From the NCBI GenBank assembly GCA_011391125.1, contig JAABRE010000015.1:3700-67699 (forward strand): 64,000 nucleotides of DNA, written 5' to 3'. Both the position numbers and the translations under genes were made by a program. Origin of the DNA: Synechococcales cyanobacterium S06 (GTDB lineage: Bacteria; Cyanobacteriota; Cyanobacteriia; Cyanobacteriales; JAABRE01). Below, piece by piece: positions 3,670-55,600 of the stretch; position 1 is the stretch's first letter; every line of letters starts with the position of its first letter. Below the pieces are notes generated by a model that saw only the letters and a program-made list of their open reading frames with translations, searched no databases and was not told the origin of the DNA.

Positions 3670-3910
3670 AATTGAGGGACTTTTTTGCTTCCTAAATATT
3701 AACATTCATACCTGATTGAGTTCTCATTTAGATAACCTTAATCATTTATCTACGAAAACCCAATCAATTTTTAAACATTATTTTACGTCAAACCTTGACA
3801 AATAATATTTTTTGTGCTATACGAACATAGAAAAACTGTTTTCAAATTTTAAACTAACATTAAGATATAAAATAGTAGTTATTACTCATTAAACTAATCA
3901 CAAATAACCA

Positions 3911-4972
3911 ATGATTGACAGTAAAGCCGTTTTAGAAGTTTTAAAACCAGTTCAAGATCCCGAACTGCAAAAAAGTTTGGTGGAATTGAACATGATTAGA
4001 AATGTTGCTATTGAAGGTAGTAAAGTAAGTTTTACCTTGGTTTTAACCACCCCTGCTTGTCCATTACGAGAATTTATTGTCGAAGACTGCCAAAAAGCTG
4101 TCAAAACTTTACCCGGTGTGGAAACGGTGGAAGTGGAAGTAACCGCCGAAACTCCCCAACAAAAAGAATTACCCGATCGCCAAGGAGTCCCCGGTATTAA
4201 AAATATTATCGCCATTTCTAGCGGTAAAGGTGGTGTTGGCAAAAGCACCGTGGCCGTGAATGTCGCAGTTGCTTTAGCACAACTAGGGTCAAAAGTGGGG
4301 TTATTAGACGCAGATATCTATGGCCCTAATACCCCCACCATGCTAGGGTTAGCAAGTGCCAAGGTGATGGTAAAACAAGCCCCTCAAGGCGAAGTTTTAG
4401 ACCCTGTCTTTAACTATGGTGTGAAATTAGTTTCCATGGCCTTTTTGATCGATCCCGATCAACCCGTGGTTTGGCGCGGTCCCATGTTAAACGGTATTAT
4501 TCGCCAATTCCTCTACCAAGTGGATTGGGGAGAGTTAGATTATTTAATCGTGGATATGCCCCCCGGAACGGGTGATGCCCAATTAACCATGGCTCAAGCT
4601 GTACCCATGGCCGGAGCAGTAATTGTAACGACTCCTCAAACTGTGTCTTTACTTGACTCCCGTCGTGGTTTAAAAATGTTCCAACAAATGGGGGTCAATG
4701 TGTTAGGAATTGTGGAAAACATGAGTTATTTTATCCCCCCGGATATGCCCGAAAAAAGTTATGATTTATTTGGTTCTGGAGGTGGAGAAAAAGCCTCGAA
4801 AGAGTTAGGTATTCCTTTACTTGGTTGTATTCCTTTGGAAATTGCTCTTCGCGAAGGTGGAGATTCTGGTATTCCCATTGTGATCTCAGATCCTGATAGC
4901 GTTTCCGCTCAATCTTTAAAAGCGATCGCCTCCCAAATTGCCGCTAAAGTCTCAATCGCAGCCTTAAGATAG
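3911..4972 (+). CDS. apbC: Mrp/ApbC/NBP35-type iron-sulfur cluster carrier ATPase with an N-terminal DUF59-like domain
   Basis: Deviant Walker A SGKGGVGKST. The N-terminal domain is MIP18/DUF59-like. Length of 353 aa is typical for the family. The stop TAG lies inside a heptamer array. Confidence 0.85.
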   Translation: MIDSKAVLEVLKPVQDPELQKSLVELNMIRNVAIEGSKVSFTLVLTTPACPLREFIVEDCQKAVKTLPGVETVEVEVTAETPQQKELPDRQGVPGIKNIIAISSGKGGVGKSTVAVNVAVALAQLGSKVGLLDADIYGPNTPTMLGLASAKVMVKQAPQGEVLDPVFNYGVKLVSMAFLIDPDQPVVWRGPMLNGIIRQFLYQVDWGELDYLIVDMPPGTGDAQLTMAQAVPMAGAVIVTTPQTVSLLDSRRGLKMFQQMGVNVLGIVENMSYFIPPDMPEKSYDLFGSGGGEKASKELGIPLLGCIPLEIALREGGDSGIPIVISDPDSVSAQSLKAIASQIAAKVSIAALR

Positions 4973-5006
4973 TTGACAGTTGATAGTTGATAGTTGACAG
5001 TTGACA
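4971..5006. repeat. heptamer tandem array (AGTTGAC/AGTTGAT)n
   Basis: 7-nt periodicity, abutting the mrp/apbC stop codon. Confidence 0.85.
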
Positions 5007-5034: not shown

Positions 5035-5161
5035 TATAGTAATTCCAAATAAAAATTAAACAAAAGTTTTTAGTTTGTTGTTGGCTTTAGTCCTAAAAAG
5101 CCCGAAAGCGCAACTACCATCCTATTTTTCAACTGTTCTAATCTTAATTGAAATTACTATA
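5035..5161. mobile_element. MITE, TATAGTAATTCCAA-terminus family, carrying an internal nested hairpin-tag repeat
   Basis: Terminal inverted repeats are TATAGTAATTCCAA (5035-5048) and TTGAAATTACTATA (5148-5161, one mismatch). A shorter 81-bp copy lies at 59663..59743. The extra internal segment of about 46 bp carries the GCGCAACTAC tag. Confidence 0.75.
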
Positions 5162-5236
5162 ACTGTTAACTGTTAACTGTTAACTGATAACTGTTAACTG
5201 ATAACTGATAACTGTTAACTGATAACTAATAACTGA
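5161..5236. repeat. heptamer tandem array (AACTGTT/AACTGAT)n
   Basis: 7-nt periodicity. The array ends 4 nt before the ATG at 5241. Confidence 0.85.
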
Positions 5237-17022: not shown

Positions 17023-17125
17023 TATAGCAATCCTATTGAAATTGTGGGCCAGACGTTGCATGCAACGTCTCTACCGTAAAAGGTTAGTGAAAACAATTTT
17101 TTACAACCTATTTAGGATTGCTATA
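17023..17125. mobile_element. MITE, TATAGCAATCCTA-terminus family, containing a palindromic core
   Basis: Termini are TATAGCAATCCTA (17023-17035) and TAGGATTGCTATA (17113-17125). The core is AGACGTTGCATGCAACGTCTCTAC. It is an inverted copy of the element at 40405..40506 and ends 2 nt from the stop of the adjacent gene. Confidence 0.8.
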
Positions 17126-17126
17126 G

Positions 17127-18626
17127 TTAATTCTCTGGTTTTTTCTCCTCAGAAACTGGAGTTAAATCTGGTTTTTTCTCCTCAGAAACTGGAGTTAAAT
17201 CTGGTTTTTTCTCCTCAGAAACGGTGGAATTAACAGGGTTTAAATCTGGTTTTTTCTCCTCAGAAACGGTGGAATTAACAGGGTTTAAATCTGGTTTTTT
17301 CTCCTCAGAAACGGTGGAATTAACAGGGTTTAAATCTGGTTTTTTCTCCTCAGAAGGTTTAACCGATTGAGGAATATTATCAAGGAGGGGAGGAGTCGTA
17401 TTATTATTAGTTGACTGGGAATGTTTTTGATTAGCAGGTGGTAGTTGTTCAGGACAAATATTCTGATTATAAGCAAAATCAACGGTCACTAAATAGGGTT
17501 TAGGATTATCTTTTTTAAACTCATAAAAAGATATCTCAAATCGGGCATTTTCGTTAAAAATGGGGTATTCTGCACTTTTTATTAATTGTAAACTGGTTGG
17601 TTCACCCTGGCCGTTGACCAATACTCCATAGGTTGTACTACCTTCCAACTTTTGTAAACAAGCATCTTTGGGATACTTCCCTTTCAAGGTTAATTTTTCT
17701 GGTTCAACCTGATTAATCGTAATCAACCAATTGAGATAATTGGTGGTTGCTTCCTTGTCTGAAGTATTATTCGTATTTTTTGCCAATGCAGCGGCTCGTT
17801 GTTGAAGTTCCGTTCGGGCATTTTCCTGAGCCATGGCTAATAAATCCTGTTCCGAAGGGGGATTAATGTCTTGTTTCCCCGTGGGTGGTAAAAGGGGAAA
17901 TTCCCTGACATTAACGGGGTTTGGGGGGATTTCTGGGTCTTTTGGGGGTAATTTGGTTTCGGGATTCGGATTTTGATTAACTGGAGCATTGGAAAATTCC
18001 CTCAAAATATCGTTGGTACTACGAAGGGGAATTGAGTTAAGATCAACATTCATCTCGGTTTCGATTTCCTGTTGAGTTTCTAATTGTCTTTTTAATTCTT
18101 GTAAATCATCTTTCTGTGGTAGCGCTGGACTATTGTCAGATGGTTCATCAAAAGGCGGATTATTCAAAAGAGGAGGGGGAATGGGTACAGTTTTCGCAAC
18201 CGGTAACTCTTTAATCGCAGGAATTTCGGGGATTTCTGAGATTTCTGGTTTTTGATTGGTTTTATCAGCCAAGTCAGGAGGCAAAAATAAGGAAGTCGTG
18301 GGAAGAGGAGGAAGAGGAGTGGGAGTCGCCGGAAAAGGCAAAGCAAGCGCCGTTTCTAAGATGGGTGTGTTAGGGAGAGGTGTATTGGGAAATTCTGGCA
18401 CTTGAGTTGGTTTGGGCGACAAGTCCGGTAACCGTGCGACTTCTGTGTCGTTTAATTGTACAATGGGGACTGGATTTGTTTTAATATTTTTGTTTTCTAC
18501 CGAAAAGAGGGGCAAATTTGGGACAGCAAATAAAGCTCCATGACCAACCAAGGAAGCGATAATTCCTAGAATTGTACTAATAGGAATCTGATTAGAAAAA
18601 GAGGATTTTAAAGATAAATCAGACAT
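17127..18626 (-). CDS. proline-rich membrane-anchored protein, TonB-like architecture, with a tandem-repeat C-terminal tail
   Basis: One N-terminal TM helix, a long Pro-rich spacer, and a globular C-terminal-like region. The extreme C-terminus has three copies of a 15-aa unit and two of an 11-aa unit (SEEKKPDL...). The TonB assignment is architectural only. Confidence 0.6.
   Translation of the reverse strand: MSDLSLKSSFSNQIPISTILGIIASLVGHGALFAVPNLPLFSVENKNIKTNPVPIVQLNDTEVARLPDLSPKPTQVPEFPNTPLPNTPILETALALPFPATPTPLPPLPTTSLFLPPDLADKTNQKPEISEIPEIPAIKELPVAKTVPIPPPLLNNPPFDEPSDNSPALPQKDDLQELKRQLETQQEIETEMNVDLNSIPLRSTNDILREFSNAPVNQNPNPETKLPPKDPEIPPNPVNVREFPLLPPTGKQDINPPSEQDLLAMAQENARTELQQRAAALAKNTNNTSDKEATTNYLNWLITINQVEPEKLTLKGKYPKDACLQKLEGSTTYGVLVNGQGEPTSLQLIKSAEYPIFNENARFEISFYEFKKDNPKPYLVTVDFAYNQNICPEQLPPANQKHSQSTNNNTTPPLLDNIPQSVKPSEEKKPDLNPVNSTVSEEKKPDLNPVNSTVSEEKKPDLNPVNSTVSEEKKPDLTPVSEEKKPDLTPVSEEKKPEN
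17134..17356. repeat. perfect coding tandem repeats (2 x 33 nt, then 3 x 45 nt, plus a partial unit)
   Basis: Direct reading of TCTGGTTTTTTCTCCTCAGAAAC... units. All unit lengths are multiples of 3. Confidence 0.9.
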
Positions 18627-39019: not shown

Positions 39020-40306
39020 ATGAATATTGTAGTTGTTGGTCTATCTCACAAAACAGCACCAGTAGGAATTCGGGAAAAATTAAGCATTCCCGAAGGGAAA
39101 ATAGAAGCAGCGATTACTCAATTAAAAAGCTATCCTCATCTTGATGAAGTGGCGATCATTAGCACTTGTAACCGTCTGGAAATTTACGCTGTAGCCAAGG
39201 AAACCGAAACTGGAGTTCAGGCCATTGCCCAATTTCTCGCCGAATACGGCCACATTTACCTCCATGAATTGAGACGCTATTTGTTTGTCTTATTACGTCA
39301 AGATGCCCTACGTCATTTGATGCGCGTATCAGCAGGTTTAGAAAGCTTGGTTTTAGGAGAAGGTCAAATTTTGGCTCAGGTCAAAACTACCCACAAATTA
39401 GCACAAAAATATAAGGGTTTGGGGCGTTTATTGGATCGTCTCTTTAAGCAAGCGATGACGGCCGGTAAACGGGTTCGTACCGAGACTAATATTGGTACAG
39501 GAGCAGTGTCGATTAGTTCGGCGGCGGTGGAATTGGCTGACGCAAAAGTCGAGCATTTGGAAAATTATCGGATTAGCATTATTGGAGCGGGCAAAATGTC
39601 TCGCTTACTTGTGCAACATTTGGCCGCTAAAGGTTGTCAAAATATTGCCCTAGTCAATAGATCTCACACTAGGGCGCAGGAATTGGCCGATAAATTCCCC
39701 GAAGCAAAGTTGCAAATTCATCTGTTACCAGAAATGATGAATGTAATCGCCAATTCTGACTTGGTTTTTACTAGCACGGGAGCAACTGAACCGATTTTAA
39801 CTAAGGGCAATTTAGAAGCTGTTTTAAAACCCGATCAGGAATTAATGCTGATTGATATTTCTGTCCCCCTCAATGTAGCCACGGATGTTGCTACTATGCC
39901 CAATGTGGCTTCCTATAACGTCGATGACTTAAAAGCCGTGGTTGCTCAAAACCATGCTACCCGTCGCCAAATGGCCCAAGAAGCAGAAGCCTTGTTAGAA
40001 GAAGAGGTTGAAGCTTATGTCGTGTGGTGGCGATCGCTGGAAACTGTACCAACCATTAGCTCTTTACGCAATAAAATTGAGGACATTCGCGAACAGGAAT
40101 TGGAAAAAGCCTTATCCCGTTTAGGTTCGGAGTTTGCGGAAAAGCACCAAGAAGTAATCGAGGCTTTAACCAGAGGTATTGTCAACAAAATTTTACATGA
40201 ACCTATGGTACAATTAAGGGCGCAACAAGATATTGAAGCACGTCACCGTTGTCTGCAATCTTTGCAAATGTTGTTTGATTTAGAGATCGAAGAACAATAC
40301 AGTTAA
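39020..40306 (+). CDS. hemA: glutamyl-tRNA reductase
   Basis: [15 protein letters not shown], the catalytic-Cys context STCNRLEIY, and the NADPH motif IGAGKM. The ATG at 39020 is preferred over the TTG at 38999. Confidence 0.9.
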
Positions 40307-40404
40307 TAGTTGATAGTTGATAGTTGATAGTTGACAGTTGATAGTTGATAGTTGATAGTTGATAGTTGACAGTTGATAGTTGACAGTTGATAGTTGACAG
40401 TTGA
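40301..40404. repeat. heptamer tandem array (AGTTGAT/AGTTGAC)n, about 15 units
   Basis: 7-nt periodicity. The hemA stop TAA (40304-40306) lies in the first unit. Confidence 0.9.
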
Positions 40405-40506
40405 TATAGCAATCCTAAATTAGTTGTAAAAAATTGTTTTCACCAAACCCTTACTGTAGAGACGTTGCATGCAACGTCTCTACACAACGAACATAGAACT
40501 GCTATA
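40405..40506. mobile_element. MITE, TATAGCAATCCTA-terminus family, inserted into the heptamer array
   Basis: The left terminus is TATAGCAATCCTA; the right terminus is degenerate (...AACTGCTATA). It contains the perfect 28-bp palindrome GTAGAGACGTTGCATGCAACGTCTCTAC (40456-40483). Removing the element plus one TA restores ...AGTTGATAGTTGATAG. Confidence 0.8.
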
Positions 40507-40627
40507 GTTGATAGTAAAAAAATTAATATCTAGTTACTAACTTCTATTAACTATTATTCATTATATTTCAGGTAAAATGTATTATAATTAATGACAAGAA
40601 AAGCTGTCTAAGGCCTCCTTCCCCCTC

Positions 40628-40682
40628 AGTTACCAGTTATCAATTGTTAACTGTTAACTGTTAACTGTTAACTGATAACTGA
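40628..40682. repeat. heptamer tandem array (AACTGTT/CAGTTAC variants)
   Basis: 7-nt periodicity. The array ends 1 nt before the ATG at 40684. Confidence 0.8.
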
Positions 40683-40683
40683 A

Positions 40684-43623
40684 ATGACACAATCTTTATT
40701 CTTTAAATTCGTTAAATTTATTTTAATTTTATTAGCTTTGTGGGTGGGTTTTACCATTATCACTAGGTTGATAGTTGAGAGTTTTTGGTTTCAAGAAGTT
40801 GGTTATTTTGATACTTTTTTATTACGTTTACAAACCAAAGTTGGCCTAGGGGCGATCGCTTCAATTATTTCCTTATTATTATTACTAATTAACCTAAATA
40901 TTGCGGATCAAAATAAGTGGAATTATCTCCCACAAAATCAACCAAAATCTAACCAACTTTTACCGCAAACACCTGTTTTAAAATTACCTTTATTATTATT
41001 AATAATTACAGTTTTTTCCTTTTTAAGTGGGTTAATGTTACTTTATTATGGTGAAATTGCCAGCGAATTAAAGCAGGTTGATTTTACTTTACCTAATATT
41101 ATCCCACCCCTACCTTCACCCTTTAAAGTAATTGCTTATTTTAGTAAAATTGCTCCCCAATTTTCTGAGAATATCTTTCATTTATCAGTATTAATAGCTA
41201 CCACAGTCTTTATTATTACTCAAGTTAAACTTACTACAAAAATTATTGCTGGAATTTTAAGTCTGCTTTCTGGTTTTATCTTATCAGCGAATTGGACCAG
41301 ATTTTTAGAATATTTTGCACCCACAGAATTTAATCAAACTGATCCTATTTTTGCCAAAGATATTAGTTTTTATATCTTTAAATTACCTTTTTGGCAATTA
41401 TTAGATTTCTGGTTAAGTGGTTTGTTTTTATCTGGTTTAATCTCCTGTTGTTTAATTTATTTATTATCAGCAAATAGCCTATCTGAAGGAAGATTTCCCG
41501 GATTTTCTACCCCACAATTGCGCCATATTTATATCTTAAGTGGTTTATTTATCTTAACCCTTTCCTTACGTCATTGGTTAACACGTTATGAATTGCTTAA
41601 TTCCCAACGAGGTGTGACTTATGGAGCAGGTTTTACCGATATCAAGATCGAATTACCCATCCAAACTAACTTAGCAATTATTGCTTTAATCATTGCAATT
41701 TGGTTAATTTTGAAAGCCATATTTCATGGTAAAAATAGATTTAGATTATTCCTTAAACAAGATAAATTAGTCCAAAAAACAACCCCTTTAATTGCCGGGG
41801 TTATGGTAATCTATTTATTCCTAACAATTATTGGTTTTTTCTCAAGTCTGCTCATTCAAAGAATTAGCGTTCAACCCAATGAATTGGCCAGGGAAAAACC
41901 CTATATTGAACGAAGTATCGCATATACTAGAAAAGCATTTGGTTTAGATAATATAGACGCAAAAACCTTTGATCCAGAAGATAAATTAACCATTGAAGAT
42001 ATACAAAAAAATTATCTTACTATTGAAAATATCCGTCTTTGGGATACCCGACCAATTTTACAAACTAATCGTCAATTGCAACAAATTAGACTTTATTATA
42101 AGTTTAATGATGCCGATATTGATCGTTATAATTTAACCCTGAAAAAACAGCAAAAGATCGTTACTGAGAAACAACAAATTATTATTGCAGCTCGAGAATT
42201 AGATTATACTGCTGTTCCTAAAGAAGCACAAACTTGGGTTAATGAACATTTAGTCTACACCCATGGTTATGGTTTTACCATGTCTCCAGTTAATCAAGTT
42301 GCTGAAGCCGGCTTGCCTGACTATTATGTTAAAGATATTGGTACAGATACCATAGCAGATCAAGAAGGAAGTTTAAACATTTCTAATAAGTTAATTTCTA
42401 ATACTATTCCCATAGGAAAACCCCGTATTTATTATGGTGAATTAACGAATAATTATATTTTAACAGGGACAAATACTTTGGAATTTGACTTTCCTAGCGG
42501 GGAAGAAAATGTTTATAATACCTATGATGGGAAAGGAGGAATTTCTATTAAAAATATTGGGCAAAGATTATTATTTGGAAGCTATTTGAGGGATTGGCGC
42601 ATTCTTTTTGCTCAAAATATTACTCCGGAAACTAAACTTTTATTCCGTCGTAATATTAACATGAGAATAAGGGCGATCGCTCCTTTTTTGCATTACGATA
42701 AAAACCCTTATTTAGTAATTGCTGATGGAAACGATACTAATATAAATGGCGAAAAAAATTATTTATATTGGGTGATTGATGCTTACACCACAACAGATCA
42801 TTATCCCTACTCTGATCCCGGAAATAACAGTTTTAATTATATTAGAAACTCCGTTAAAGTTGTTATTAATGCCTATAATGGTGACATAAATTTTTATATT
42901 TCTGATCAGAATGATCCCATTCTACAAACATGGGAAAAGTTATTTCCTAACCTATTTAAACCCATTGAAAAAATGCCTGCAAATATTTTCGCTCATATTC
43001 GTTATCCCACGGATTTATTTACCATCCAATCCGAACGTTTATTGTCTTATCACATGACAGACCCCCAAGTATTTTATAATCGCGAAGATCAATGGGAAAT
43101 TCCCCAAGAAATTTATGCCAATCAGTCTCAACCCATTGATCCCTATTATTTGATCATGAAATTACCCACTGCAAAATCCGAGGAATTTATCCTACTTCAC
43201 CCCTACACTCCCCGAAGTCGACCTAATTTAATTGCCTGGTTGGCGGGACGTTCAGATGGCGAAGAATATGGTAAATTACTGTTATATCAATTCCCGAAAC
43301 AAAAATTAATTTATGGTCCTGATCAAATTGAAGCTTTAATTAATCAAGACCCCGTTATTTCCCAACAAATATCCCTCTGGAATCGGGAAGGTAGTAGAGC
43401 AATTCAAGGTAATTTATTAGTCATTCCCATTGAACAATCTTTATTATATGTGGAACCTTTATATTTAGAAGCAGAAAGAAATAGTTTGCCTACTTTAGCT
43501 AGAGTTATTGTAGTATATGAAAATAAAATTATTATGGCCGATAATTTATCCGATGCTTTAACAGCAGTTTTTACTCCCAAAAAACAGGAAAATACTGCCA
43601 TTATTCGACCACTTGGTAGTTGA
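40684..43623 (+). CDS. UPF0182 family large membrane protein
   Basis: 979 aa. The N-terminal third is multi-TM, followed by a large soluble region. The VYTHGYGF and WLAGRSDG-type blocks resemble UPF0182. Confidence 0.75.
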   Translation: MTQSLFFKFVKFILILLALWVGFTIITRLIVESFWFQEVGYFDTFLLRLQTKVGLGAIASIISLLLLLINLNIADQNKWNYLPQNQPKSNQLLPQTPVLKLPLLLLIITVFSFLSGLMLLYYGEIASELKQVDFTLPNIIPPLPSPFKVIAYFSKIAPQFSENIFHLSVLIATTVFIITQVKLTTKIIAGILSLLSGFILSANWTRFLEYFAPTEFNQTDPIFAKDISFYIFKLPFWQLLDFWLSGLFLSGLISCCLIYLLSANSLSEGRFPGFSTPQLRHIYILSGLFILTLSLRHWLTRYELLNSQRGVTYGAGFTDIKIELPIQTNLAIIALIIAIWLILKAIFHGKNRFRLFLKQDKLVQKTTPLIAGVMVIYLFLTIIGFFSSLLIQRISVQPNELAREKPYIERSIAYTRKAFGLDNIDAKTFDPEDKLTIEDIQKNYLTIENIRLWDTRPILQTNRQLQQIRLYYKFNDADIDRYNLTLKKQQKIVTEKQQIIIAARELDYTAVPKEAQTWVNEHLVYTHGYGFTMSPVNQVAEAGLPDYYVKDIGTDTIADQEGSLNISNKLISNTIPIGKPRIYYGELTNNYILTGTNTLEFDFPSGEENVYNTYDGKGGISIKNIGQRLLFGSYLRDWRILFAQNITPETKLLFRRNINMRIRAIAPFLHYDKNPYLVIADGNDTNINGEKNYLYWVIDAYTTTDHYPYSDPGNNSFNYIRNSVKVVINAYNGDINFYISDQNDPILQTWEKLFPNLFKPIEKMPANIFAHIRYPTDLFTIQSERLLSYHMTDPQVFYNREDQWEIPQEIYANQSQPIDPYYLIMKLPTAKSEEFILLHPYTPRSRPNLIAWLAGRSDGEEYGKLLLYQFPKQKLIYGPDQIEALINQDPVISQQISLWNREGSRAIQGNLLVIPIEQSLLYVEPLYLEAERNSLPTLARVIVVYENKIIMADNLSDALTAVFTPKKQENTAIIRPLGS

Positions 43624-43667
43624 TAGTTGATAGTTGATAGTTGACAGTTGATAGTTGACAGTTGATC
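43618..43667. repeat. heptamer tandem array (AGTTGAT/AGTTGAC)n
   Basis: 7-nt periodicity. The stop TGA (43621-43623) of the upstream gene lies in the first unit. Confidence 0.9.
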
Positions 43668-43704
43668 AGTCTTTTCTTATTTATTACTTCCTACTTTTTA
43701 CTTC

Positions 43705-44361
43705 TTACTTCCTACTCCTTACTTCTTTTAAAGCTTCATCTCTAATCCTACAAGAATCACATAAACCACAAGGTTCTTCCCCTCCTTGATAACATGACCA
43801 AGTTAAATCAATGGGTACATTTAAGGCAATGGCTTTTTTAACAATCGCTACTTTAGAATCATGTATTAAAGGAGCAATTAATTGCGGGGTTTTACCTTCA
43901 ATTCCTATTTTGGATGACAAATTCGCGAGATTTTGATATGCTTGTAAATATTCTGGCCGACAGTCTGGATAACCCGAATAATCCACCGCATTTATTCCTA
44001 AATAGATCGCTTCCGCATTTTTTGCTTCTGCTAAAGAAAGGGCGATCGCCATAAAAACTGTGTTCCTTCCTGGAACATAAGTAGAAGGAATTTCGTTCGG
44101 TTTTACACCATCTTTGGGGAGATTTAAAGACAAGTCTGTTAAGGATGATCCCCCCCATTGCGCTAAATTTATATCTGTGATAAAATGCTCCGAAATTCCT
44201 AACATTTTCCCTATTTTTTGCGCTATTTCTAACTCTTTCGCGTGTCTCTGTCCATAACGAAATGATAAACCGATTACTTCATAACCCTCTTTTAGGGCGA
44301 TCGCCGCCACGGTTGAAGAATCAAGTCCGCCTGACATTAAAACTACTGCTTTTTTTCCCAT
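43705..44361 (-). CDS. queC: 7-cyano-7-deazaguanine synthase
   Basis: PP-loop [12 protein letters not shown] and the C-terminal zinc Cys cluster [15 protein letters not shown]. Confidence 0.9.
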
Positions 44362-44730
44362 AATTTTTATTAGTTAATTGTTAAGAATTGTTACAAACAC
44401 TTGACCCAGTCCCCCCAAATACTTTATCATATCATTAATTACAATAAGGGGTAAAAAAAATTGCGCAAAATTCCCAGCGCCGAGGTTAGCCGCAACTTTT
44501 TTAGGTCAGATGCTCGCTAATCATCTAGGCAGCGCCAAAATAATTTTTGTATCAAATTATACCATTTTCTGAAAATCGCCAAATAACCGCATTATAAACG
44601 AGATTTGAGAAATAACATTTGAGACCAAAAATAACTTTTAACCGCGATTAAACCCTATTTAAACTGCGTTTATCAAGAAATTTAATCTGTGTTAATCTTT
44701 TTTTTTAAGTCAGTAATTGATAATTATTAA

Positions 44731-45357
44731 TTATCTTACTCCTAGTAGTTTATGAGTTTGTAAACTAATTCGCCATTGGGGATTTTTTAACACATATTGA
44801 AAAATAATATTTTCACTTTCTTTGGTATTCCATTCTGGTTGCAAATATTTAATTGTTTCCGAAGGTACTAAAGCAGCTTGTTGTTCTGCCCAAATTAAAT
44901 CCTGCTCATTTTTAATCACAATTTTTAACTCATTTACCTGATCATAAATACTTTCATGGGGTATTTTAAACTGTTTAGGCGAAAAAGTCACCCAATCAAA
45001 AATACCCGTAAAAGGATGACTTCCAGATGTTTCTAAATGTAGTCTTTTTCCTAGTTTTTTAATCCCCTTAGTTAAGGGGTTTAAATTGTGCATTAAAGGT
45101 TCTCCCCCTGTGATAATAATTATCGCAGGATTCGCTATTTTTACCTGATTTACTAACTCTTTGATCTCAATTTGTGGGTGTCTTTTTACATTCCATGATT
45201 GTTTAGTGTCACACCAAGGACAACCCACATCACAACCTCCCAATCTGATAAAAAAAGCATTGACTCCGAACCAATATCCTTCCCCTTGAACGGAATGGAA
45301 TGTCTCTACGATGGGATAAGTTTGGGTTTCTGACCTAATTTGTGTTGCTTGTAACAT
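44731..45357 (-). CDS. queE: 7-carboxy-7-deazaguanine synthase (radical SAM)
   Basis: N-terminal FHSVQGEG and the radical-SAM cluster CDVGCPWC. 208 aa. Confidence 0.85.
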   Translation of the reverse strand: MLQATQIRSETQTYPIVETFHSVQGEGYWFGVNAFFIRLGGCDVGCPWCDTKQSWNVKRHPQIEIKELVNQVKIANPAIIIITGGEPLMHNLNPLTKGIKKLGKRLHLETSGSHPFTGIFDWVTFSPKQFKIPHESIYDQVNELKIVIKNEQDLIWAEQQAALVPSETIKYLQPEWNTKESENIIFQYVLKNPQWRISLQTHKLLGVR

Positions 45358-45521
45358 CTTTTTCTTTTGGCGATCGCAGTTAAGGTTTTATTTTACCATT
45401 TATTCGTCAATTATAAAGTTTTGTAACGTAAATCACACACTTTTTTTTTTACTGATCTACAATTAAGGTAAAGAAAAGGTTAACAAATAATTAACACGAT
45501 TTAATAAAAGAGGTTTTAACC

Positions 45522-45686
45522 ATGTTAGGATTAATTTTTCATCGAAAAGGCAGAAAAGATCAGGATCAACTCCTAGTTAAAGATACTGACAATACTTTTA
45601 ACTTTAAACCCGATCGACCACAATTAGTAGCACACTGGATCAAAAATGAACAAAATCAACTAAGTTGCGAATGGGTTTATGATTGA
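45522..45686 (+). CDS. possible 54-aa small ORF (below the ORF-track cutoff)
   Basis: ATG preceded by AGAGG. Translates to MLGLIFHRKGRKDQDQLLVKDTDNTFNFKPDRPQLVAHWIKNEQNQLSCEWVYD. No known family recognised. Confidence 0.25.
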   Translation: MLGLIFHRKGRKDQDQLLVKDTDNTFNFKPDRPQLVAHWIKNEQNQLSCEWVYD

Positions 45687-45698
45687 CTGATTCAATAC

Positions 45699-45729
45699 AA
45701 AAAAGTAGGCGTGAACAGCAATTCACGCC
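45699..45729 (-). terminator. Rho-independent terminator downstream of the IscB remnant
   Basis: Stem GGCGTGAA (45708-45715) / TTCACGCC (45722-45729). On the minus strand the hairpin is followed, after 3 nt (TAC), by a T6 run (plus-strand A6 at 45699-45704). Confidence 0.6.
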
Positions 45730-45766
45730 GTATCATCTGATCGCCAATAATAGGAGTTAAACAGAG

Positions 45767-46855
45767 TTAAATGGAGTTAAATTCATAGATATAACCATCT
45801 TGTTGATGTATGCAAGCAAACAAGGAGAGTTTTCCACCAATACGTTTCCCATTAACTCTAACTTCTAATCTTGTAGCTGATTGAATGACCATTTTTCCTG
45901 TATAAGAAACACCATCTTTAATAATAGTTGCTATATCTCCTGTTTTCCAACCCATGTTATATTTTTGACGTGGTTTTGAGATAGGAAATCCATATTTATT
46001 AATTCGACATAATCTCCTTGTACCTTGTCCTTTTGCTGTTATTATTAAGGGATTTTTTGTTAATAATTTTAAGGTAGTAATATCTCCCACACAAGCAGCA
46101 TCAATCCAATGAGTTTTTGGGAAGTTTAATTTAATACGATTAAATTTGGTTTTACCTCCACTACTGGTAATAAGTGGTAATCCCATTTCTTTTCAAGAAT
46201 TAAACAGTTGCCAACGAGTTGTATTAACCGCAGTAGCGTCTTTTAATGGTTGTTTTGCTTGTGTTTTAATTTGTTGTAGTAATTGTGGTTGATCACTTAA
46301 AAAGTGATCAATTAATTGACTACCTTTTTTCTGATTACAACCTTTACAAGCAAGGGTTAAATTAGAAATGCGATTACTACCTCCAAGGGATTTGGGTTTA
46401 ATATGTTCAATTTCTAAAGGAACATCTTTTTTACCACAATAAACGCAATTTCTACCCCATTTTTCTAATAAATATTCTCGAATTTCATAACCTTGTAATT
46501 CACCTCTTTCAGTTACCAGTGAACAGTTACCAGTGAACAGATAATTAATAGTTAATAACTGATAACTGATAACTGATAACTGATAACTGAAATGACCACG
46601 ATGTTTTAATTCTGCTCCCCAAATTACTTGATTATTAGAAACTAAAGCAACTCCTGTAGTTTTTGAACCAGGGTCGAGTTTTAATTCTATAGGTTGACTA
46701 ACAACATTGAGTTTTACTTCCTTGAGAATAATTGTAAATGGATAACGTCTAAAAACCGATGCTTTCCTTTGTTTTAATAGCTTTCGAGCTACACTAGGGT
46801 GAGTGGGTTGTAAAGGTGTTTTGTTGGCATCTAAAACAAAAACATAATTGCTCAT
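45767..46855 (-). pseudogene. iscB: decayed IscB-type RNA-guided nuclease (RuvC-HNH, IS200/IS605-associated OMEGA family)
   Basis: The N-terminus is PLMP-like (VFVLDANKTPLQPTHPSVARKLLKQRKA). RuvC-I is LDPGSKTTGVAL, HNH is CVYCGKKDVPLEIEHIKPKSLGGSNRISNLTLACKGCNQKKG, and RuvC-III is THWIDAACVG. An in-frame TGA lies at 46193-46195 (LFNS*KEMGLP). The segment between RuvC-I and HNH is replaced by heptamer-repeat-encoded SYQLSVISYQLLTINYLFTGNCSLV. Confidence 0.75.
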
Positions 46856-47080
46856 TTCTAAGAACTCCTAAAATAGGGTAAAGTTGGCCTCAACCATGTT
46901 ATCGAAGCTTGTTAGGTCAAAGACACTATCCTTGCGGACTGTTTAATCAGTGACGACAGAGCTTAAAGCTGGCAAAACTTTAAGGTGTCTTGACGAGCGA
47001 TAACTGCTCCCCTTTTTTGGGGGGTCTGGTTCACACCAATTGATTACGAATTACTCCGTTTCTTGGTGATCCCTACTTTT
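46856..47080 (-). ncRNA. candidate omega RNA / HEARO-type structured RNA upstream of iscB (5' boundary uncertain)
   Basis: Position and orientation are as expected for IscB omega RNAs. Hand-found pairings include a long-range stem between 46916-46926 and 46985-46994 (one bulge), a CCCC-T6-GGGG hairpin at 47009-47024, ACCAA...TTGGT at about 47036-47070, and nested AAAG...CTTT and CTGT...ACAG stems. Confidence 0.45.
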
Positions 47081-47155
47081 TTACATCAGAATTAAAAACT
47101 TAGTAAATCAATTCTTGTCCAGAAAATATCAATTTCTTTACTTTTTACCTGTTAG

Positions 47156-48022
47156 TTAAATGATTTTCATGCTTAAATCTAACCAAGGTGATCTAGTTAT
47201 GGGTGCACTGCTGGAAATATAGTCCACTCCGGTTTCGGCCACTTGACGAATATTTTCTAAAGTAATATTACCAGATGCTTCAATTTTGAGGTTTGGTTTT
47301 TTGTTTCTAATTAATTCCACAGCTTGAATCATCTCAGAAATACCCATATTATCTAACATAATAATATCCGCACCATTTTCTAAGGCCTGCAATACTTCGG
47401 CCAGATTACTGGTTTCGACTTCGATGGTTAAAGGATAGGGACTATGTTTTTTTATTCTGGCGATCGCCTCAGCAATACTACCCGCAGCTTTGATATGATT
47501 ATCTTTAATCATCACACCATCATCTAAACCGTAACGATGATTAATTGCACCTCCTACGTGAGTGGCATATTTTTCTAAGATTCTTAATCCAGGAGTAGTT
47601 TTGCGGGTATCAACTAATTTGCAGGGTAAATCAGCGATCGCCTGCACAAATTCAGCGGTAAGTGTGGCAATTCCCGATAAACTCATAGTTAGGTTTAATG
47701 CTACCCTTTCACCCATGAGTAAACTATTTAACGGTCCATGAAGATGGGCAATTACTGATCCTTTTTGACAAAATTGACCTTCCAAACCGAGGGTTTCAAA
47801 TTTAACTTGGTCGTCTAACATAGTAAAGACTCTTTGAGCAAGGGGAAGTCCAGCAATTACTCCTGATTCCTTGACAATCCAATCTGCTTCACCGTGATTT
47901 ACTTCAAAATCAGCAAAAAGATTTTGGGTAGTGCGATCGCCTCTTCCTAAATCTTCAAGTAACCAACTATGTAAAAGAGGATCAACTAAAATCCAGTGAG
48001 GAATTGTTCCAGTAATATTCAC
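47156..48022 (-). CDS. nadC: nicotinate-nucleotide pyrophosphorylase (quinolinate phosphoribosyltransferase)
   Basis: 288 aa with typical NadC blocks (TRKTTPGLR, HRYGLDDGVMIKDNH, IMLDNM). Confidence 0.9.
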   Translation of the reverse strand: MNITGTIPHWILVDPLLHSWLLEDLGRGDRTTQNLFADFEVNHGEADWIVKESGVIAGLPLAQRVFTMLDDQVKFETLGLEGQFCQKGSVIAHLHGPLNSLLMGERVALNLTMSLSGIATLTAEFVQAIADLPCKLVDTRKTTPGLRILEKYATHVGGAINHRYGLDDGVMIKDNHIKAAGSIAEAIARIKKHSPYPLTIEVETSNLAEVLQALENGADIIMLDNMGISEMIQAVELIRNKKPNLKIEASGNITLENIRQVAETGVDYISSSAPITRSPWLDLSMKII

Positions 48023-48186
48023 AAAAAAGCTCCTAAGATAGTTGGTAGTTGAGAGTGAATAATGAGCCGTTTTTATAACAACAATTAATTATCCACTGTC
48101 AACTAAAATAATTGTTAATTGTTAATTGTTAATTGTCAATTATTAACCGCTATCTTAAAGAAATCCTTTCGTTATGTATATGTATT

Positions 48187-52635: not shown

Positions 52636-55600
52636 ATGTCAATTACTCTTATTAATCAATATCGTCGGGATTTAGAAGCTAAAATTCGTTTTGGTGGTTC
52701 TCGTAACGAAAATTCTGTCAGATTTGCTTTCGGTAATTTGCTAAATTCCTATTGTAAAGCGCGGGATTTTGTCTTGGTTGATGAGTTAACTATTTCTAGT
52801 CGTTTTAATACTCAGATTCGCCTTGATGGCATTGTTAAAGATGCTTTAAGACTGGATTGGGGGTATTGGGAGGCTAAAGATGAAAAAGATAATTTAGATG
52901 AGGAAATTGAGTTAAAAATTAATCAGAAAGGTTATCCCACTGATAATATTTTATTTGAGGATACTAAGACTGCTGTTTTAATCCAAAATGGCCGAGAAAC
53001 CCTACGGATTAAGATGGAAAATGACACCGATTTAGATAAGATTATTAATCTATTTTTAGACTACGAAAGAGGAGAAGTTAAAGATTTTCGACAAGCAATT
53101 TCCTCTTTTAAGGAAGATTTACCCACGATTTTAACTACTCTGAGAAATCTAATTGATCAGCAACTTGTAGAGACGTACCATGGTACGTCTCTACAAACAT
53201 TTAAAGATAAATTTAACGTTTTTTTAAAAGTTTGTCAAGATTCCATCAATCCTAATCTTAATGAAGCTGATATTCGGGAGATGATTATTCAGCATATTTT
53301 AACTGAGGATATTTTTACTAATATCTTTAGTGAGGGACAATTTCACCAAGAAAATAATGTTGCTTGTCAGTTACAAGAACTAATTAAAACCTTTTTTACA
53401 GGTAGTCTTAAACGCCAGACTTTAAAAACTATTGAAAGTTATTATCAAGTAATTATTAGAACCGCTGCTAATATTGTCAATCATCAGGAAAAACAGAAGT
53501 TTTTAAAAGTAGTTTATGAGAATTTCTATCAGGCCTATAATCCTTTGGCGGCCGATCGCCTCGGAATCGTTTATACTCCGAATGAAATCGTTAAATTCAT
53601 GGTGGAAAGTACCGATTATTTATTAACCAAATACTTTCAAAAAACCTTGGGCGATCGGGGAGTTGAAATCTTAGATCCAGCCACGGGTACAGGTACTTTT
53701 ATCACCGAAATTTTAGAGTATTTATTAACCAGAGATATTACCTATAAATATCAGCATGAAATCCACTGTAATGAGGTTTCTATTTTGCCCTATTATATCG
53801 CAAATCTTAATATTGAATACAGTTATCAGCAAAAAACTGGACAATATTTAGAGTTTAATAATATCTGTTTAGTTGATACTTTGGAGCATAGTTCCTTTAG
53901 TGGTAAACAGATGGATATATTCGCCATGAGTCAGGAAAATACGGAGCGAATTAAGCGACAAAATGAACGAAAAATATCAGTCATTATTGGCAATCCTCCC
54001 TATAATGCTAAACAAGAAAACTTTAATCAAAATAATGCAAATCGTGGTTATCAAAGTATAGATAAACGTATCAAAGATACTTATGTAAAAGAAGGAAATG
54101 CACAAAATCAAATAGTATTGTATGATATGTACACTAGGTTTATAAGATGGGCAACAGACAGATTAAATGATAACGGAATTATTGCATTTATTACAAATTC
54201 CTCTTTTATTGATGCACTAACTTTTGATGGTTTTAGAAAGGTTATTTCCTCTGAATTTAGTCAGATTTATGTCATTGATTTAGGAGGTAATATTAGAGCA
54301 GGGGATAAAACAGGAAATGTGTTTAATATTATGGTGGGAGTTGCCATTACTTTCTTAGTGAAAAAATCCGACTCCCCTCACCATCTGGGAGAGGAGTCGG
54401 GAGTGAAGAAAAATTGTCAAATTTACTATCAAAAATTAGCTCAAAATAATAGCAAAGATAAGTTAAATTATTTAGCACAAACTCAATTTAAAGATATTCC
54501 TTTTGAACACCTTACCCCTGATAAAAAGCATAACTGGATTAATCAAGTAGATAATAATTTCGATGAATTACTACCTTTAATTGATAAAAATGTTAAGTCA
54601 GGAAAATCTGAGCAAGCAATTTTTAAGTTATTTTCGAGGGGAATTGGTACTTATCGAGATGATTGGGTTTATGATTTTTCTGAGGAAAATTTAACTAAAA
54701 AAGTAGCGTTTTTTATTGAAACTTATCAAAAAACCTTACAAGATAACGACTTTAAAGACAAAAATAACATAAAATGGGATCGGGAATTAACTAATTATTT
54801 AAAGAGAAGAATTCATAAAGAATTTAATCAAGAGCAGATTATTTCAAGTTTATATCGGCCATTTATTAAACAATATTTGTATTTTGATAAACATCTTAAT
54901 GGGATGACTTATCAATGGTTTGATATTTACAGAAAAAAAGATCAAGATAATAAATATATTGCATTTTTAACATTAGGAAATAGTAAATCTTTTCATTGTT
55001 TAGCAACAAATTTAATGGTTGATTTACACTTAACCGGTGATTCTCAATGTCTTCCCTTATCTAGTTATGATGAAAATGGCGAAAAAATTGATAATATAAC
55101 GGATTGGGGATTAGAACAGTTTAGGGAATATTATCAACCCTCACCCCCCCAACCCCCCTCTCTCTCAGAGAGAGGGGGGAGAAGACTTTCAGATAATTCT
55201 AGCTCCCCTCACCCTGTGGGAGAGGGGTTGGGGGTGAGGGCTAATCCGCCTACAGGAGAAAAGTTGGGGGTGAGGAAAATAACTAAACTAGACATATTCC
55301 ATTATATTTATGCAGTTTTACATAATCCGAAATACAGGGAAAAATACGAGCAGAATTTGAAACGAGATTTCCCAAGAATACCTTTTTATCCTAATTTTAA
55401 TCAGTGGAAAAATTGGGGTGAAAAATTAATGGAATTACATCTAAATTATGAGAGTATTTCACCTTATCCTTTGAAAAATGTAGAGACGTTGCATGCAACG
55501 TCTCTACATTCAATCCCAAAACCCAAATTAAAAGTAGATAAAACCAAGGGTCAAATAATCATTGATGAGATTACCATTTTAGAAAATGTCCCCGAAATTG

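Follow-up and report, generated by a model that had tools for sequence, protein, structure and literature searches.

An IscB/omega-RNA element behind nadC in Synechococcales cyanobacterium S06, probably a recent pseudogene beside an intact RNA

The locus and its IscB frame

On contig JAABRE010000015.1 of Synechococcales cyanobacterium S06 (GenBank assembly GCA_011391125.1), we analysed a stretch of 64,000 nucleotides, positions 3,700 to 67,699 of the forward strand, which we call the window and whose coordinates are used throughout. It is cyanobacterial DNA of low GC content (37%), full of tandem heptamers, and on its minus strand, directly behind the host gene nadC, it holds an element that combines a structured RNA with a damaged gene for the nuclease IscB. 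In an intact element of this kind, an RNA transcribed from the 5' flank consists of a guide of ~16-20 nt, taken from the flanking sequence, and a scaffold of ~200 nt that binds IscB, and IscB bound to this omega RNA uses its RuvC and HNH sites to cleave DNA that matches the guide. The element at 45727-47073(-), referred to below as the S06 copy, is 1347 bp long, whereas an intact copy would be ~1527 bp. That it follows nadC had been stated in an earlier note on this DNA and is borne out by the Pfam matches of the upstream gene. From upstream to downstream in the sense of transcription, the features are these (ORF, open reading frame; L033, a metagenome contig carrying an intact relative):

47156-48022, minus strand: nadC (quinolinate phosphoribosyltransferase), the host gene upstream; a 288-aa ORF matching Pfam QRPTase_N and QRPTase_C
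47074-47155, minus strand: spacer between nadC and the element, 82 nt
47074-47093, minus strand: putative guide of the omega RNA; part of the host flank, immediately 5' of the scaffold and inside the nadC spacer
46856-47073, minus strand: omega RNA (HEARO) scaffold; 5' domain with P1, core helices, and a last small hairpin with the Shine-Dalgarno sequence before the ATG
46593-46855, minus strand: N-terminal part of the iscB pseudogene, PLMP-like domain and RuvC-I, codons 1-87; Pfam RRXRR, 81% nucleotide identity to L033
46506-46592, minus strand: 87-nt replacement segment, a palindromic heptamer-repeat hairpin; placed by blastn break points, junctions, Tandem Repeats Finder (TRF) and DNA folding
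46196-46505, minus strand: HNH domain and linker of the iscB pseudogene; Pfam HNH and HNH_5, alignment to intact homologues
46193-46195, minus strand: in-frame TGA at a conserved Leu; alignment to homologues
45767-46192, minus strand: RuvC-III (HWIDAA) and C-terminal beta-rich (TAM-interacting-like; TAM, target-adjacent motif) domain of the iscB pseudogene, to the TAA stop; 75% nucleotide identity to L033
45727-45766, minus strand: conserved 3' terminal segment of the element, ending ...GATCAGATGATACGGC; a terminus common to the elements of the sub-family
45699-45729, minus strand: terminator-like hairpin (GGCGTGAA-TTGCTG-TTCACGCC), then TAC and T6; terminator scan

The iscB frame itself (45767-46855, minus strand) measures 1089 nt, or 363 codons with one in-frame TGA, and the IscB hallmarks that the earlier note had listed for it are all present: a PLQP (PLMP-like) N-terminus, LDPGSKTTG, the pairs CxxC...CxxC around EIEHI, and HWIDAA. 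The frame thus has the PLMP domain with RuvC-I (the D in LDPGS), an HNH site with two CxxC pairs, and RuvC-III (HxxD). What it lacks is the Arg-rich bridge helix and RuvC-II with its catalytic Glu, the equivalents of residues 88-177 of the intact relative P0121 being absent, as well as the uninterrupted ORF of 400-500 aa, the pseudogene being split into ORFs of 220 and 139 aa. Profile searches, which the earlier note had proposed, agree with this picture. Pfam RRXRR matches the frame (1.6e-28) at profile positions 1-83 of 174 alone, leaving 84-174 unmatched, and Pfam HNH matches at 6.6e-14, with HNH_5 also matching. On the NCBIfam model NF040563 (guided_IscB), which has a curated cut-off of 175 bits, the S06 frame scores 294.2 bits in two stretches and the intact P0121 scores 470 bits in one.

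A protein search returned thousands of homologues, and the figures given here come from the best 120. Their lengths fall between 401 and 456 aa except for S06's own 220-aa ORF, and the bridge region is carried by all 119 close homologues (each of at least 395 aa); short IscB proteins natively lacking it, which the earlier note had named as the case that would speak against a loss, number 0 among the 119. Several of the best homologues bear the name 'RNA-guided endonuclease IscB', plasmid-borne relatives in Nostoc, Tolypothrix, Gloeothece and others are likewise so annotated, and relatives with solved structures include OgeuIscB (PDB 7xht, 7utn). The closest intact relatives are P0001 and P0121 (425 aa) at ~73-74% identity, with P0002 (401 aa) at 73% in the multiple alignment. 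The metagenome contigs L027-L035, which hold P0121 and P0126 and with them the closest intact relatives, share one conserved neighbourhood (DUF5895, Sipho_Gp157, DUF932, AbiEii) that looks plasmid- or phage-borne.

The likeness to known IscB/omega-RNA elements, such as that of OgeuIscB and those whose cyanobacterial proteins PGAP names 'RNA-guided endonuclease IscB', lies in the domain order (PLMP, RuvC-I, then in those elements the bridge helix and RuvC-II, then HNH, RuvC-III and the C-terminal domain), in the structured RNA directly 5' of the ORF, and in a score above the family cut-off. As in most ISC elements, no transposase ORF adjoins the S06 copy, its neighbours being nadC and queE. Unlike intact IscB elements, it has its bridge helix and RuvC-II deleted and an in-frame stop, and its iscB product, as judged from the encoded sequence, cannot be an active nuclease.

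Two lesions and their age

The iscB gene of the S06 copy has exactly two lesions, a replacement of 267 nt by 87 nt and one in-frame TGA. The limits of the first are set by blastn against L033: S06 47073-46593 pairs with L033 2781-3263 at 78.6% identity and S06 46505-45727 with L033 3531-4309 at 73%, and the 267 nt between them in L033 (3264-3530) are replaced in the S06 copy by the 87 nt of 46506-46592. The junctions are clean (CATCGTGGTCA / TTTCAG...CTGAAAG / AGGTGAATTA, slashes marking the joints), the reading frame is kept by the length difference of 180 nt, and the replacement holds no stop codon. In the protein alignment, the S06 frame lacks ~90 residues between ...HRG and GELQGYE, namely QQIKEALNTRRAVRRSRRYRHTRYRKARFLNR...SIAQELVKFD...EYQQ, which comprise the bridge helix and RuvC-II; alignment to intact relatives thus upholds the view of the earlier note that these parts were lost to a heptamer segment and that a nonsense codon was gained.

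The replacement is a single long hairpin with the ends TTTCAGTTA...TAACTGAAA, in which (CAGTTAT)5 faces (TTCACTGGTAACTG)2, and it folds as DNA with -18.3 kcal/mol (z = -7.3). The heptamer repeats that had been seen between RuvC-I and HNH are resolved by TRF into 5.1 perfect copies of ATAACTG at 46555-46590 and 2.2 copies of a 14-mer at 46510-46540. Matches to microRNA families on 46500-46596 were rejected as artefacts of the long hairpin. We also rejected a recurrent break after residue 88, a notion raised by three relatives that match residues 1-88 alone. Two of them, L014 and L016, run on into bridge-helix coding sequence until the contig ends, and their match had ended at residue 88 since the query goes over into repeats at that point. 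In the third, L017 (4330-5243 of the Xenococcaceae metagenome-assembled genome contig JASJCP010000046), an IS-like insertion splits iscB directly behind the Arg-rich helix, with a HEARO of 103.5 bits upstream. There, as in the S06 copy, iscB is inactivated beside a recognisable omega RNA, the cause being a transposon insertion, and L017 is a second route to IscB pseudogenisation.

The second lesion, the single in-frame TGA of the earlier note, is confirmed at 46193-46195, where 98% of the 119 intact homologues have Leu and L033 has CTA. A single step separates TGA from the Leu codon TTA, which we infer to be its origin.

Outside these two lesions the gene is hardly changed. At the columns with a conservation of 95% or more among the 119 intact homologues, the S06 copy keeps 87 of 125 residues, but 87 of 89 outside the replaced segment; the 38 losses comprise 36 in that segment, the stop codon and one conservative R-to-K change. 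Over 321 shared codons, the ratio of nonsynonymous to synonymous substitution (dN/dS) between the S06 copy and L033 is 0.12; measured against the outgroup L040, the S06 copy has a dN of 0.298 and the intact L033 one of 0.299. It is because the rest of the gene is so barely worn, without an excess of amino-acid changes, that we call the inactivation recent: the S06 iscB was under purifying selection for nearly its whole history and died recently. The word 'decayed' in the earlier note thus stands as regards two inactivating lesions and is overstated as regards the remainder of the gene.

The omega RNA and its setting

Rfam HEARO (RF02033), the covariance model suggested by the earlier note for the upstream region, matches 46878-47099(-) at full length (model positions 1-211) with 76.5 bits and E 3e-15, and the match ends 22 nt before the iscB ATG. 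A structured RNA is therefore present as had been supposed, although its scaffold starts at 47073 (GGGATCA) and not further upstream: similarity among sub-family elements at different sites begins exactly there, and the sequences upstream are unrelated. The P1 helix is formed by CACCAA (47063-47068) and TTGGTG (47034-47039), and it covaries across the sub-family (CACCAA/UUGGUG, CAUCGA/UCGAUG, CAUAA/UUAUG). The S06 RNA shares with HEARO the full-length match, the same helices, which covary in relatives, and the same position relative to the ORF. It departs from HEARO in the shorter 5' domain and the conserved CU/UU loop of its sub-family, and in a 3x2 loop of its own in the long stem. In a survey of HEARO nucleases, RF02033 matches were found in 65% of the 5' untranslated regions (PMC9755519).

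The state of the RNA was gauged with a second covariance model, R1, made from 10 related omega RNA cores (consensus of 36 pairs, 25 of them with compensatory changes). R1 gives the S06 RNA 106.2 bits on 46876-47032, rank 43 of 89. Canonical pairs are kept at 32 of the 36 positions. The other 4 are broken; in copies that adjoin other IscB genes, broken pairs number between 0 and 6, with a median of ~2. Of the 37 bases with a conservation of 90% or more among 86 other copies, the S06 RNA keeps 36, and the median copy misses 1. Two of the 4 mismatches make up the CU/UU internal loop, which is common to the sub-family members L086, L040, L036 and L037 and which we take to be ancestral and not decay; this loop accounts for lower Rfam scores of that HEARO sub-family. 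In the omega RNAs of S06 (46916-46955) and of these four, it is a 2x2 loop within a 9-bp helix whose flanking pairs covary. Specific to S06 is a 3x2 internal loop in the long stem (GUUAUCG-CUC-GU / GC-UU-CGAUAAC), where relatives have 11 perfect pairs; the same stem includes one compensated U-A to G-C change. By model scores and by pair and base counts, the omega RNA gene is structurally essentially intact, and the statement that the RNA gene persists holds. The 10-bp long-range pairing to which the earlier note had drawn attention (46985-46994 with 46916-46926; GUCAAGACAC / GUGUCU[U]UGAC) does occur, with one bulge, in the centroid fold, but we do not accept it as a genuine helix: it stands in competition with helices that covary, L086 and L040 lack it, and it lies outside the structure that covariation supports.

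By analogy with intact elements, the 16-20 nt upstream of the scaffold (47074-47093) would be the guide. Its target sequence would be CTGATGTAAAAAAGTA, and the putative guide has no other near match within the window. At the other end, the element terminates at 45727 with the consensus ...GATYAGATG....GRC, and the flanks of relatives diverge right after GGC/GAC; both ends are set solely by the points where homology to relatives stops. The 3' flanks of five sub-family elements showed no common motif that might be a TAM. The downstream hairpin with its T6 run, also correctly described before, has 9 pairs (45729-45708) followed by TAC and TTTTTT; it spans the 3' boundary of the element and is mostly host flank.

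Promoter and terminator scans found no sigma-70-like promoter and no terminator between nadC and the omega RNA, and read-through from nadC is for this reason the simplest source of transcription, by which the omega RNA may still be made. The nearest nadC orthologues are 78-80% identical. One of them, in a related organism (78% identity, same upstream synteny), has its own terminator ~50 nt past the stop codon and no IscB within 275 nt downstream, which is consistent with insertion in the S06 lineage.

Three further ORFs lie next to the element. The 208-aa ORF at 44731-45357(-) has a radical-SAM match and is taken as queE, the 218-aa ORF at 43705-44361(-) reads as QueC-like by a look at its sequence alone, and the 54-aa ORF at 45522-45686(+), which faces the 3' end of the element, has no Pfam match.

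Readings of the locus and their meaning

We read the locus, with a probability of roughly 85%, as a recently pseudogenised IscB/omega-RNA (OMEGA, HEARO) element of the ISC branch of IS200/IS605, non-autonomous. The reading is carried by direct observations on the S06 copy: IscB family membership, both lesions and their extent, the recent inactivation, and the structural integrity of the RNA. The order and mechanism of the lesions, like the guide position and the read-through from nadC, are what we infer for this copy. The element would have entered the 3' untranslated region of nadC immediately ahead of the terminator-like hairpin. The 267 nt encoding the Arg-rich bridge helix and RuvC-II with its catalytic Glu would then have been swapped for an 87-nt palindrome of the heptamer repeats with which this cyanobacterial genome is strewn, and as a second event the Leu codon would have become TGA. 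The omega RNA alone would have no nuclease to guide. The contrast between a dead nuclease and a persisting RNA is just what recent inactivation looks like, and the S06 element is a further example of a well-known kind, an ordinary dying mobile element.

Several points weigh against this reading. The HEARO score of 76.5 bits lies under the gathering score of 83 bits and, among 12 copies, below the scores of all 11 relatives, which reach 85-140 bits (91.8 for the nearest, L033 and L035); we rejected it as a sign of decay, given that 2 of the 4 broken pairs belong to the sub-family loop and the conserved-base count is normal. The S06-specific 3x2 loop means that the RNA may be slightly impaired. 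The lesions are known from a single assembly covering 45873-46921. Two Logan contigs of the same strain (L025 and L026, SRR29699977) reproduce 46922-48135 and 44477-45872 exactly and stop inside the element, at 46922 and 45872; ending short of both lesions, they neither confirm nor contradict them. Finally, the exact empty site was not recovered, the nearest nadC orthologues having no alignable intergenic DNA, and the history of the insertion stays at the level of the comparison with the orthologue described above.

A different account, which we regard as improbable, would have the orphan omega RNA kept by selection for loading in trans onto intact IscB paralogues encoded at other places in the genome, a service that would protect the S06 copy by homing after excision, or would give the RNA some other function. 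In structure the scaffold equals that of typical copies beside other IscB genes, an intact-looking IscB, P0002 (77% identical), is found in an NCBI record, and the breaks of the independent same-strain contigs inside the element hint at other similar copies in that sample. Yet the protein frame outside the lesions is as well preserved as the RNA, so that recency alone explains an intact RNA, which is for this reason not evidence of selective retention; moreover, the 64-kb window holds no second HEARO or IscB copy, and the S06-specific internal loop sits in the long stem.

We give marginally less credit to a pair of more unusual possibilities taken together, namely that the heptamer palindrome is the footprint of an active hairpin-array invasion that replaced DNA, or that an omega RNA cotranscribed with nadC is used in trans by a paralogous IscB. 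The palindrome is the sole slightly unusual point of the locus. Its heptamer family has 13 matches in the window against 0.06 expected, and the window contains heptamer arrays (AGTTGAT, CAGTTAT/CAGTTAA, TTGATAG and others) at, for example, 2482-2549, 4971-5006, 5159-5236, 40301-40406, 40627-40683 and 43613-43727. The arrays examined outside the element are intergenic and adjoin gene ends or start codons, and that at 40627-40683 is likewise palindromic, its end TAACTGAAATG lying at a start codon. We take these heptamers to be akin to the STRR-type short tandemly repeated heptamers of cyanobacteria. Like STRR-type repeats, the arrays of the window are tandem 7-mers of a family that runs through the genome, normally intergenic and abutting gene ends; unlike them, the replacement array is palindromic and lies inside former coding sequence, where it displaces exactly 267 nt. 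PMC3542288 and PMC5088731 refer to heptamer probes and to STRR fingerprinting.

Very unlikely, in our judgement, is an artefact, in which the true locus has an intact iscB and the hairpin segment, the TGA or both come from metagenome assembly or sequencing. Coverage of the lesions by one assembly only would allow for it, and heptamer arrays and multi-copy elements are typical places of assembly error; against this, both junctions are clean, collinear and in the same frame of the same gene, a palindrome of 86 nt with perfectly symmetrical ends is nothing that an assembler could invent, and the flanking 1.2-1.4 kb is reproduced base for base by an independent assembly. Least credible of all is that the 220-aa product (PLMP, RuvC-I, repeat-encoded linker, HNH), or a product of read-through, functions as a shortened nuclease of the HNH type, in the manner of the small IshB proteins, which have HNH only. 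The replacement is in frame and stop-free and the HNH motifs are intact, but by our own calculation such an outcome has a chance of ~0.1-0.15, since no frame of a period-7 repeat like (CAGTTAT)n contains a stop. In the linker, junk encoded by repeats takes the place of 36 conserved residues including the RNA-binding Arg-rich helix, the TGA cuts the frame before RuvC-III, and the only product below 395 aa among the best 120 homologues is the S06 ORF itself.

Two other kinds of repeat were seen in the window. A family of ~100 bp resembling miniature inverted-repeat transposable elements occurs at ~17023-17125, ~40405-40510 and ~55450-55540; its central palindrome ACGTTGCATGCAACGT is present at all three sites and its terminal inverted repeat TATAGCAATCCTA at the first two, with 0 matches expected by chance. 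At 17134-17355, within the minus-strand ORF 17127-18626, tandem repeats of 33 nt and 45 nt (100% identity) give the C-terminus of a Pro-rich protein of 499 aa its SEEKKPDLNPVNSTV-type repeats.

For annotation, the value of a recently pseudogenised IscB/omega-RNA element at this site is that the locus is to be described as an iscB pseudogene with an omega RNA (HEARO) gene, and not as a pair of 'HNH endonuclease' ORFs. As a cleanly dated case, it also shows the death of an OMEGA element, in which the nuclease was lost first, before visible wear of the RNA or of the remaining ORF, by way of one repeat-mediated replacement and one nonsense mutation. A palindromic heptamer array standing in the place of a defined 267-nt coding stretch could help to explain how cyanobacterial repeats arise and spread, and if it were indeed the product of an invasion that replaced DNA, the S06 copy would offer a rare before-and-after view of such an event, the lost 267 nt being readable from relatives.

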